A stretch of 56,349 bases of DNA, taken from the UHGV virus genome UHGV-0011358, one strand, 5' to 3'. The notes under the pieces were generated by a model that was not told the DNA's origin, ran no database searches, and saw nothing but the letters and a program-made list of their open reading frames with translations. This DNA comes from a virus. Both the position numbers and the translations under genes were made by a program. Shown here one piece after another: positions 1,736 to 46,549 of this stretch. Numbering within the stretch: the stretch's first letter is position 1; each line of letters starts with the position of its first letter.

Positions 1736-1769
1736 GTATACAATTTGTTATTCGTGAGGAAATGACACT

Positions 1770-3393: not shown

Positions 3394-3427
3394 ATTTTCC
3401 ATTTTGTAAACCGGAGGTAATAACATA

Positions 3428-6886: not shown

Positions 6887-7062
6887 TGGTGAGTTATTAC
6901 AGGGCCAAACCTACAGGCATTTTGTATAAGGTTGATGGCGAATACGTTTATTACTTTCACAATCAGGCGCGTGAGTGGCGATTGTGTCACGCGCACTTAC
7001 AGCACGAAATAGAAAATCACCCTGAATATTTTATCAAAGTTGACAATGTAACTGTGGCGTAA
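6886..7062 (+). CDS. hypothetical protein
   Basis: 58 aa ORF; ATG overlaps the ninB stop (TAATG). Confidence 0.4.
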   Translation: MVSYYRAKPTGILYKVDGEYVYYFHNQAREWRLCHAHLQHEIENHPEYFIKVDNVTVA

Positions 7063-12745: not shown

Positions 12746-12922
12746 CTCGATGACTCCATTTTGTTAATTAACGGAATAATTCTACCATTTTATGATCTGT
12801 GTTGCATTTTCTGCTTACACAAAATGTATTTGTTGATTTATATCAATATACGAAGTGTTGTTTTGTCGGATATTCAAGACACCGGATGAACCGGACGAGC
12901 TAACAAGAACGAGGATTAAAAA

Positions 12923-20155: not shown

Positions 20156-20275
20156 CTTGTCATTTTGTGATCGCTGTCACGCTAAATCATACCAAAACGG
20201 TTGATAGCGCTTTTTACAATATGTATATTGTACTCAAAAGGAAGCAGGGTTAACAAAATGGCGCGGAGGTGTGAG

Positions 20276-20806: not shown

Positions 20807-21055
20807 ATGGGGAGGCGCAATCACGGCGATTATGTGTACACGTTGAAACAGGCCGCCCGCCTCATCGGTTATCATGAGCACGAATTTATTGATTTGCTGA
20901 TTGAGCGCGGGATACTGTACCAGGTCTGTTTAACGCTGTACCCAAAAGCGAAATACCTACAGGAAAAGTTATTTATCATCATGACGGACGAAAACCAGGT
21001 TAATCATTCATTCGTCACTGATAAGGGCGTTAATTATCTGCGTGATAACTTGTAG
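20807..21055 (+). CDS. hypothetical protein (moron island B)
   Basis: 82 aa ORF. Confidence 0.4.
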   Translation: MGRRNHGDYVYTLKQAARLIGYHEHEFIDLLIERGILYQVCLTLYPKAKYLQEKLFIIMTDENQVNHSFVTDKGVNYLRDNL

Positions 21056-21762: not shown

Positions 21763-21932
21763 GATTCCCCCTATAAGTTACATATTGCATACATCTTTAC
21801 GCGCTTCTACGCGAAAAATGAGAAATTCATCACAAGAATTATAACCAGTTTACAAAATGGCTTCACATAAGGCGTGACAAGATGTATATAGTAAGCAAGA
21901 AGAAAAAGCAGTACCGACAAAGGGGGGACAAC

Positions 21933-22088
21933 ATGGAACGCTATATGGTTGTGATGCTGAACAAAGCATTCGAACAGGTGGAAGTTGCGATTGTGAAGGG
22001 CTTTGATGATGCATTCAAATACGGTCAATTCATGATGAATGCAAAAGAAGATGAATACCGTGATTTCTTCCTGAAAGTGGTCAGCTAA
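21933..22088 (+). CDS. hypothetical small protein (moron island C)
   Basis: 51 aa; strong G-rich RBS. Confidence 0.4.
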   Translation: MERYMVVMLNKAFEQVEVAIVKGFDDAFKYGQFMMNAKEDEYRDFFLKVVS

Positions 22089-22106
22089 TGGATTGTGGGG
22101 TGTGTT

Positions 22107-22361
22107 ATGAAATTGGTGGCGATTGGTAAAAACCTGAAAGCACAGAAAAACGCACAGGACCGGATCATCAAAAAGGGCAAGGCTTTATTAAATGCTTTCC
22201 TGAAAAAAGAGGCCAACCCCAAAAAATTACGCGATGGCTACGGTTATAAATTTGACATCAACCCCGATTGGCGGTTATTCAGCGAAGATTTAAAGATGTG
22301 GTTAATTATTGACCACCTGGAATATAACAGGCACTGTGGGGTGAAAGGCGCTCACAAGTGA
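22107..22361 (+). CDS. hypothetical protein (moron island C)
   Basis: 84 aa basic ORF. Confidence 0.4.
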   Translation: MKLVAIGKNLKAQKNAQDRIIKKGKALLNAFLKKEANPKKLRDGYGYKFDINPDWRLFSEDLKMWLIIDHLEYNRHCGVKGAHK

Positions 22362-25968: not shown

Positions 25969-26125
25969 GATTTAACCTCATACAAAATGTGATCTATGCC
26001 TCTATTTTATACAAAATGGATTTACTTCAGTGAACACATTTTGTATAAAGAAGCCAAAGGAAAGGGATTGAGCGAATGGATTCAGAAGACCGGATGAACC
26101 GGAGGAAGCAAAAGAGGATAAGAAA

Positions 26126-46348: not shown

Positions 46349-46549
46349 TAATGCTCTCTCCTTTTCAGGTGATTTCTACGCATTTCAGCGCTGCCGGATT
46401 TTTAAAGAGCATTTTGTTTGCTTGAAGTATACAAAATGGATACACCAGAACAAGGCGAAAAGCGCCATTATGTGATCCATATCACACAATGACGCCATTT
46501 TGTAAACTTCAGTCCGGTAAAACGCTGGCGTGGTTAGCTAAAAGCTGTT

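Follow-up and report, generated by a model that had tools for sequence, protein, structure and literature searches.

A recurring near-palindrome at early and dispersed promoters of an mEpimmI-group coliphage as the probable operator of its CI-type immunity repressor

Control regions flanking the repressor gene

The window analyzed here is the virus genome UHGV-0011358 at its full length of 56,349 bases, in which the motif TATACAAAATGG recurs in intergenic DNA and flanks a lambda-CI-type immunity repressor gene, rep. The genome is complete and circularly permuted, and it belongs to a temperate coliphage of the mEpimmI group. Its identity to mEp515 is ~96% (tail region of the window), its early region is 88–91% identical to mEp010, mEp554 and mEp021, and its orientation is opposite to that of the mEp021 GenBank record. 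A 2025 study introduced the mEpimmI phages as a new and prevalent family of gut coliphages, characterized the repressor and the N-like antiterminator (gp17) and reported three nut sites (PMC11893012). In that work, plasmid-borne Rep021 (gp15, lambda-CI-like) conferred immunity against all six sequenced group members (PMC11893012). No operators or promoters of the group are defined in that paper, and a literature search for the motif sequence returned no relevant paper.

The Rep021/gp15 homologue of the window is encoded by rep (54786–55432, minus strand), the proposed source of the motif-binding protein. Rep matches the HTH_3 (5e-13) and Peptidase_S24 (1.7e-18) domains, and among proteins of solved structure lambda CI is closest to it (3bdn, 1.6e-18). 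A repressor with a helix-turn-helix (HTH) and a LexA-like S24 domain is therefore encoded beside the sites, as in lambda-type systems. In the window, rep carries a 1-nucleotide (nt) deletion in a G-run near 55264 (55260–55268), where GCGGGCGC of mEp554, mEp010 and mEp021 has become GCGGCGC. The reading frame is shifted after ~56 residues and ends at 85 residues, so that the product is truncated after the DNA-binding domain and lacks the S24 domain. Such an allele might mark a clear-plaque or virulent phage or a decaying element, or it might reflect a sequencing error; none of 35 Escherichia coli prophages carries an identical allele (best match 93% identity).

Two promoters flank the rep gene: on the plus strand, one that serves gp14 and the replication genes (TTGACC-16-TAAACT, 55492–55519), and on the minus strand, one that serves the N-like (gp17) operon (TTGACT-17-TATATT, 54661–54633). 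This placement of a repressor gene between two early promoters is the lambda arrangement, and no conserved element other than the motif is shared by the two control regions. On the N-operon side, a copy at 54660–54674 (minus strand, TATACAAAATGGATT) abuts the −35 of TTGACT(54661)-17-TATATT(54638) and is centered at −41. A copy beside the −35 of PL had been claimed in the original prediction, and it is indeed found at 54663–54674, abutting TTGACT of a promoter that scores 10/12. The block AAAAAAGTATACAAAATGGATTGACT, which comprises the motif and the −35, is invariant in 8/8 phages, whereas the −35/−10 spacer and the upstream DNA vary. At −16 of this promoter, a possible degenerate partner spans 54635–54649 (minus strand, ATCACGGGGCGTATA; TTTACGGGGCGTATA in mEp554-type phages). 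Only its outer half-sites match and its center is G+C-rich; the assignment is suggested by likeness to two lambdoid relatives, contig L021 and Erwinia phage Midgardsormr38, which have full operators at this position.

On the other side of rep, operator O1 (55503–55517, minus strand, TTTACATAATGGCTT) covers the spacer and −10 of TTGACC(55492)-16-TAAACT(55514) and is centered at −16. Operator O2 (55468–55482, plus strand, GTCACAAAACGTGTT) lies 35 bp from O1 and is inverted relative to it. O2 is degenerate in the window, scoring 6.4 bits; all bit scores given for copies come from a symmetric matrix trained only on the sites of L021 and Midgardsormr38. In mEp554, mEp013, mEp044 and the PAR prophage it reads GTCACAAAATGTA(A/T)T. 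O2 would sit at approximately −41 of a putative near-leaderless repressor-gene promoter. Sites over the −35 and/or −10 are thus present on both sides of rep, as O1 and 54660–54674.

Three further features of these control regions were noted. A second element common to both regions, AAAACACGTTTT, was considered as another operator and rejected: the copy downstream of rep is not conserved, and the copy upstream of rep is the inverted degenerate O2, for which other phages have CACAAAATGTAAT. An invariant CACCAAAACGTAAACAG (54721–54737, minus strand), upstream of the N-operon promoter, resembles a reversed operator whose A-tract is inverted; it lies 69 bp from the main copy. Finally, comparison of the window (54605–54612) with mEp021, mEp010, mEp515 and MagusPhagus shows that it lacks, like mEp554, mEp013 and mEp044, a stretch of ~210 bp located between the N-operon promoter and nutR1; in mEp021 this stretch contains the small gene gp16.

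The operator unit, its distribution and its relatives

Alignment of the copies defines the repeating unit as a 15-bp near-palindrome, TATACA-AAA-TGTAT(A/T). The unit is not a 12-mer; the motif of the original prediction corresponds to the better-conserved half of this larger element. The left half, the A-tract and the following TG are nearly invariant, and the right half is weak in the mEpimmI group; copies in the window are symmetric only in the CA...TG core and one flank. Near-perfect palindromes are found at the sites of Midgardsormr38 and L021, and at the mEp021 lpp promoter the symmetry is perfect (TATACAAAATGTATA), with TATAAT placed 2 nt after the palindrome.

The recurrence itself is real. 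All but one of the copies first listed were found exactly or within 1–3 bases of where they had been placed: 12816–12827, 21849–21860, 25979–25990 (weak), 26008–26019 with its inverse at 26036–26047, 46428–46439 with an inverse at 46495–46506, 49821–49832, 54196–54207 and 54663–54674. The exception, an inverse reported at 46410–46418, is spurious and is merely the 8-mer CATTTTGT by boxA of nutR2, which reads GCAAAATG in most relatives. The inverted repeats of the original prediction are pairs of separate operators 25 bp apart. Additional copies lie at 1737–1751, 3396–3410, 6914–6928, 20213–20227, 21874–21888, 49797–49811, 55503–55517 and 55468–55482. Centers are 25 bp apart in the pairs 26015/26040 and 21856/21881, as they are at PL of both lambdoid relatives; the distance is 24 bp for 49828/49804 and 35 bp for O1/O2. 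Adjacent operators are separated by ~2–2.5 helical turns, the spacing expected for cooperative binding of the lambda type.

In the motif scan against shuffled sequence that had been proposed as a check, the 12-mer with ≤2 mismatches gives 27 matches versus 7.6 ± 3.0 in the shuffles. The core TACAAAATG occurs 14 times in the window, where 1.15 ± 1.09 occurrences are expected; 1000 control 9-mers of the same base composition average 0.69 matches, with a maximum of 6. Based on a semi-curated gene map, non-coding DNA makes up 9.3% of the window and yet holds 11/14 of the core occurrences (binomial P = 1.3e-9). The objection that the motif is AT-rich background, equally frequent in coding DNA, fails, as the density is 2.10 per kb in non-coding versus 0.059 per kb in coding DNA (~36-fold). 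With the independent matrix, nine sites in the window score ≥14 bits, eight of them non-coding; chance would give 0.40 across the window as a whole and 0.06 in non-coding DNA of its own composition. A similar bias is seen under the curated annotation of mEp021, where 10/11 core matches are non-coding (P = 8e-9). With 88% of that genome coding, 14/16 matches of a motif matrix fall between genes, at the junctions that carry the motif in the window.

IMG/VR was scanned for the inverted operator pair, and 44 contigs were returned. In 43/44, the pair lies at the same tape-measure/cassette junction of the same phage group, always with a gap of 18 nt of variable sequence. The remaining contig, L021 (IMG/VR 3300023280_000099), belongs to a different, lambdoid-type phage whose closest annotated relative is Midgardsormr38, a complete 50-kb lambdoid genome. 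The repressors of L021 and Midgardsormr38 are 46% identical overall to Rep and ~67% identical in the DNA-binding domain, as counted from the alignment, with almost the same HTH (GITKGAVSHWLNARREP versus GITKGGLSHWLNGRREP). In both phages, three near-palindromic copies lie between the divergent rep and cro genes, the latter encoding an XRE-type Cro that adjoins the sites. Two further copies, 25 bp apart, cover the −35 and −10 of the N-operon promoter with centers at −41 and −16; this promoter precedes a boxA and an N-like gene, which is arginine-rich in L021. The lambdoid pair therefore shares with the window the repressor family, the operator consensus TATACAAAATGTAT(T/A) and the −41/−16 geometry at the N operon. 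In contrast to the dispersed sites of the window, theirs have greater symmetry and occur only in the two canonical control regions, and no convincing copy was found elsewhere in the 50 kb of Midgardsormr38. No description of these operators was found in papers. The motif follows the repressor DNA-binding domain across three phage lineages.

The copies also stand in a fixed register with predicted promoters. Operator centers recur at approximately −16 and/or −41 of sigma-70-like promoters, often as 25-bp pairs: 7/18 centers fall at −43 to −40 or −18 to −15 of promoters scoring ≥9/12. For random non-coding positions, 0.64 would be expected, and 0/1000 trials reached seven.

The suggestion that the motif is the operator of a phage regulator, made originally from its placement at promoters, is supported by the element shared between the early promoters, by the OR and PL regions of the relatives, by the −41/−16 geometry and by conservation. 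We consider it quite probable, on the sequence evidence, that the motif is the DNA site of the lambda-CI-type immunity repressor, at both early and dispersed promoters. The recurrence of the motif, its preference for intergenic DNA, its conservation, its geometry and its co-occurrence with this repressor family are established directly; Rep as the binding protein and repression as the effect at each site are what we infer. In the proposed mechanism, Rep, presumably as a dimer, binds the 15-bp near-palindrome. An operator centered at −16 would cover the spacer and −10, one at −41 would touch the −35, and occupancy would block RNA polymerase. The 25-bp pairs would allow cooperative binding, as at lambda OR1/OR2. 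The N-like operon and replication operon promoters that flank rep both carry such sites, and the site by the repressor's own promoter, placed like lambda OR2 relative to PRM, may stimulate it. The immunity that Rep021 confers against all six group phages fits with operators that are invariant across the group.

Several observations weigh against this assignment. The right half of the unit is poorly conserved (TGG or TGT, then variable), so that a symmetric dimer would meet markedly asymmetric sites. Part of the −16 association is built in, since the reverse strand of the operator is itself a −10 hexamer (TATACT, TAAACT or TATAAA). At the strong N-operon promoter only the −41 copy is clear, leaving its shut-off unexplained. 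Silencing of accessory cassettes such as Lpp would run counter to usual prophage expression. Finally, the repressor gene is frameshifted in this window.

Dispersed copies and the genes beside them

Beyond the immunity region, copies occupy about ten intergenic loci, the same as in mEp021; confinement to the immunity region, typical of lambda-type operators, is thus seen in Midgardsormr38 and not in the window. Four clusters are placed where minus-strand tail genes diverge from plus-strand accessory cassettes. At three of these, the reach of the repressor would extend to opposite-strand cassette promoters of the tail cluster (antirepressor, ParE-like toxin and small open reading frames (ORFs)). 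At the first, an operator at 26008–26022 (plus strand, TATACAAAATGGATT, 14.9 bits) is centered at −41 of the plus-strand cassette promoter TTTACT(26021)-17-TATAAA(26044), which spans 26021–26049. An inverted operator at 26033–26047 (minus strand, TATACAAAATGTGTT, 18.4 bits) lies over the spacer and TATAAA −10 of the same promoter, centered at −16. The pair is mirrored on the other strand, such that 26008–26022 is also at −16 of a minus-strand promoter. The 26008/26033 pair, 25 bp apart, is invariant in mEp515, mEp021 and the 43 IMG/VR contigs. A weak third copy (25979–25993, plus strand, CATACAAAATGTGAT, 10.5 bits), 11 nt from the tape-measure gene start, is degenerate in mEp021 and not conserved there. 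Among related IMG/VR contigs, at least four unrelated cassettes start ~5–10 bases past the second operator copy (26050–26060 in the window versus loci L012–L055). The sequence comparison suggests that the conserved operator pair marks a mosaic boundary, where it may serve as a recombination linker for cassette exchange.

The second cluster precedes the ParE-like toxin cassette. An operator at 21849–21863 (plus strand, TTTACAAAATGGCTT), with an orthologue in mEp021, is at −41 of TTCACA(21862)-17-TATATA(21885), a promoter that spans 21862–21890. Its partner 25 bp away (21874–21888, minus strand, TATACATCTTGTCAC, 12/15 matches) is at −16 of the same promoter. At the third cluster, an operator at 20213–20227 (plus strand, TTTACAATATGTATA, 15.3 bits), again with an orthologue in mEp021, is at −16 of TTGATA(20201)-17-TATATT(20224), which spans 20201–20229 and heads a plus-strand cassette with a KilAC-domain antirepressor. 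The KilAC-domain antirepressor and the ParE-like toxin of these tail-module cassettes are encoded at 20807–21055 and 22095–22361, and the ORF at 21882–22088 may be the partner of the toxin. Placement of an antirepressor under the immunity repressor's own operator would create a feed-forward induction circuit. At the fourth cluster, a single copy (12816–12830, plus strand, TACACAAAATGTATT, 18.4 bits) occupies the divergent region between a tail-tip gene and the gene for the Lpp (exclusion) lipoprotein; no promoter could be placed at this cluster in the window. The repressor may possibly act at this copy upstream of the Lpp gene as well. Operators also lie at an internal promoter before the third nut site and at the gp25/gp26 junction.

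The internal promoter, TTGTTC(46453)-16-TATACT(46431), runs on the minus strand (46453–46426) and ends ~9 nt upstream of the nutR2 boxA (46399–46410). The operator at 46428–46442 (plus strand, TATACAAAATGGATA, 15.3 bits) is centered at −16 and provides, on its reverse strand, the TATACT −10. A second operator (46492–46506, minus strand, TTTACAAAATGGCGT) is located 64 bp from it. Both operators, the −35 CTTGTT and the −10 TATACT are invariant in eight phages, amid a variable spacer, which points to a likely internal early promoter under the same control. Such an internal repressor-controlled promoter could explain the third nut site of the group. At gp25/gp26, an intergenic operator (49821–49835, plus strand, AATACAAAATGTACA, 14.9 bits) has a weaker tandem copy 24 bp away (49797–49811, plus strand, TTCACAAAACGGACA; TTTACAAAACGGATA in most relatives).

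A separate palindrome is found beside an operator copy at both of these loci: TGTGATCCATATCACA (46471–46486), ~20 bp from the 46492 operator, and TGTGATCGCAATCACA (49840–49855), ~20 bp from the 49821 operator. In the window, each contains a perfect CRP-type core (TGTGA-N6-TCACA), of which we estimate that ~0.05 would arise by chance in 56 kb. The half-sites GTGAT/TCACA are kept across eight relatives and the center is free, with most relatives reading CGTGA...TCACA. Conserved halves around a free center are the signature expected of a real binding site, and the candidate binder could be CRP or another phage protein. No known RNA element or tRNA was found.

The remaining copies are single and lie in short spacers at gp17/gp18, gp12/gp11, gp10/gp09 and gp04/gp03, where they are conserved in mEp021. 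The copy at 54193–54207 (minus strand, AATACAAAATGTAAA, 14.9 bits) overlaps the gp17 stop codon just upstream of the gp18 ribosome-binding site. In the replication operon, a copy at 3396–3410 (minus strand, TTTACAAAATGGAAA) sits in a 34-nt spacer between HNH and helicase genes and has an orthologue in mEp021. The NinB/gp03 intergenic copy (6914–6928, minus strand, TATACAAAATGCCTG) retains the motif in differing flanks. The weak copy at the gp12/gp11 junction (1737–1751, plus strand, TATACAATTTGTTAT, 9.3 bits) corresponds to TATACAAAACGTAAA in mEp021. The within-operon spacers that hold the copies at 1737, 3396, 6914 and 54193 are 34–176 nt (measured for 3396 and 6914). Single copies in both early operons could silence weak internal promoters, hinder read-through or act as roadblocks.

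Alternative readings, known systems and remaining features

Three other accounts of the motif were weighed. In one, the repressor acts as an activator at the dispersed −41 sites, as lambda CI does at OR2/PRM, so that accessory cassettes are switched on in lysogens. The −41 centers do coincide with the class II activator position, O2 has the same geometry beside the repressor's own promoter, and accessory cassettes such as Lpp are expected to be on in lysogens (PMC11893012). However, at two of the three mapped cassette promoters the −16 copy is equal to or stronger than the −41 copy, which predicts repression: 26033–26047 scores 18.4 bits versus 14.9 bits at −41, and 20213–20227 scores 15.3 bits with only a weak −41 copy. 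At 21849/21874 neither copy reaches the model threshold, and that promoter gives no verdict. The strongest −41-only case, moreover, is the lytic N-operon promoter, which needs to be off in the lysogen. We therefore regard activation as unlikely. Three copies abut a −35 in identical register, and the motif was for that reason first taken for an upstream promoter element or a class II activator site; this reading was downgraded once the −16 partners and the lambdoid relatives were found. An UP element would be fixed at −38 to −59 in one orientation, a description that holds for four copies (54660, 26008, 26033 and 21849); the remaining copies overlap the −10, face the other way or have no promoter in register. 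A related account treats the motif not as an operator but as a shared promoter module, an UP-like A-tract with an opposite-strand −10-like hexamer, copied with mobile cassettes as a recombination linker. The proximal UP subsite consensus is AAAAAARNR, which ACAAAATGG at −45 to −37 resembles; the reverse strand reads TATACT, TAAACT or TATAAA; and in the IMG/VR contigs at least four alternative cassettes start a few bases past the operator pair. Left unaccounted for are the three tandem near-palindromic copies between rep and cro of the lambdoid relatives, the copies without a promoter in register (3396, 6914 and 54193) and the strict TAC...TG conservation outside the A-tract. A role as recombination linker is compatible with an operator and not an alternative to it. 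This account is given very little credence.

The third possibility is a different binder, either a Cro-like or other phage protein or a host factor (Fis, an OmpR-type protein or an AraC-type monomer). The strong left and weak right halves would suit a monomer or a directional binder. Cro shares the CI operators in lambda-type switches, and the lambdoid relatives have an XRE-type Cro by the sites. In the window, however, no Cro homologue was found, and the association of the motif with the repressor DNA-binding domain in three lineages favors Rep. The restriction of the motif to OL and OR in Midgardsormr38 would be odd for a host-factor site. We know of no E. coli factor consensus that it fits (Fis, IHF, OmpR, TyrR, LexA and MarA were considered), and both of the key outer positions of the consensus mismatch a Fis-like site. 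A binder other than Rep is accordingly judged improbable.

As an operator of the immunity repressor, the motif belongs to a well-known kind; this specific operator is, as far as we could find, apparently undescribed. To our knowledge, its sequence differs from that of every lambda-type operator. In design, the window resembles OL/OR of lambda, 434 and P22 c2: an HTH and S24 self-cleavage repressor is encoded between two early promoters, and an N-like antiterminator and nut sites accompany it. Likewise shared are 15-bp near-palindromes with one consensus and one weaker half, ~25-bp spacing over the −35 and −10, and one OR2/PRM-like site, and the close lambdoid relatives of Rep show the textbook layout of three plus two sites. 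Unlike these systems, the window has one or two clear sites per early promoter, no Cro homologue that could be found, and about a dozen more copies outside the immunity region, in the tail cluster and both early operons. In dispersal, it resembles two other phages. Mycobacteriophage L5 reportedly carries many dispersed asymmetric sites for its gp71 repressor, the "stoperators" of Brown et al. 1997. These are 13-bp sites bound by a monomeric repressor in one orientation to transcription, and they were proposed to silence the prophage beyond its early promoters. As in L5, asymmetric sites in the window are dispersed through short within-operon spacers as well as at an early promoter. Unlike in L5, their orientation is mixed (plus, minus and minus in the plus-strand replication operon; antisense at gp25/gp26 and sense at gp17/gp18), most copies are at promoters in the −41/−16 register, and the repressor is a CI/LexA-like HTH_3 and Peptidase_S24 protein and not of the gp71 family. 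The C1 operators of P1, a plasmid prophage without N-type antitermination, are asymmetric 17-bp sites (ATTGCTCTAATAAATTT) in more than a dozen scattered places, single or as inverted pairs, that overlap promoters of diverse functions, including that of an antirepressor. The scattered asymmetric sites, their occurrence as singles or inverted pairs and the antirepressor promoter are shared with the window; the operator sequence and repressor family are unrelated. Because the repressor family differs and the L5 orientation rule does not hold, the window system is a member of neither the L5 nor the P1 system.

The variant is unusual in that the operators of a CI-type, N-dependent coliphage are dispersed. 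A broader proposal is made tentatively: that a CI/LexA-type repressor in an N-antitermination coliphage governs a network of ~18 operators at 10–12 loci, over cassettes, a nut-linked promoter and operon junctions, combining lambda-style and L5/P1-style control without Cro and with an antirepressor feed-forward commitment switch. If the dispersed copies are bound, a CI-type repressor would run an accessory-gene regulon (antirepressor, toxin and possibly the Lpp exclusion lipoprotein), as in P1 or L5. This would change the understanding of lysogenic conversion and induction in the group and would offer handles for engineering immunity-insensitive or hyper-inducible variants. The analysis supplies a testable operator consensus for mEpimmI phages and a map of likely early, internal and cassette promoters. 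The unusual third nut site might also be explained, as a repressor-controlled promoter of its own would lie upstream of it.

Two groups of minor features complete the description of the window. Two good copies of the motif lie in coding DNA of the portal gene, at 33554–33569 and 34572–34586. One, CGGCATACAAAATGGC, is identical in mEp021; the independent model gives the other, GATACAATTTGTATA, 21.3 bits, and mEp021 retains it in part as TGTACAAACTGTATA. The gp14 protein (81 residues, 55736–55981) was considered as a Cro analogue and rejected, as it has no similarity to the Cro of Midgardsormr38 and its PHROG matches are the N-termini of O-like replication initiators. Since gp14 matches only the N-terminal winged helix of these proteins, the replication initiator looks split into two genes, with no Cro at the usual position. 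The replication-protein gene at the window's right end contains three iterons of 22–23 bp, GGGGTAGTGTCACAGAGTCACT (56280–56346).

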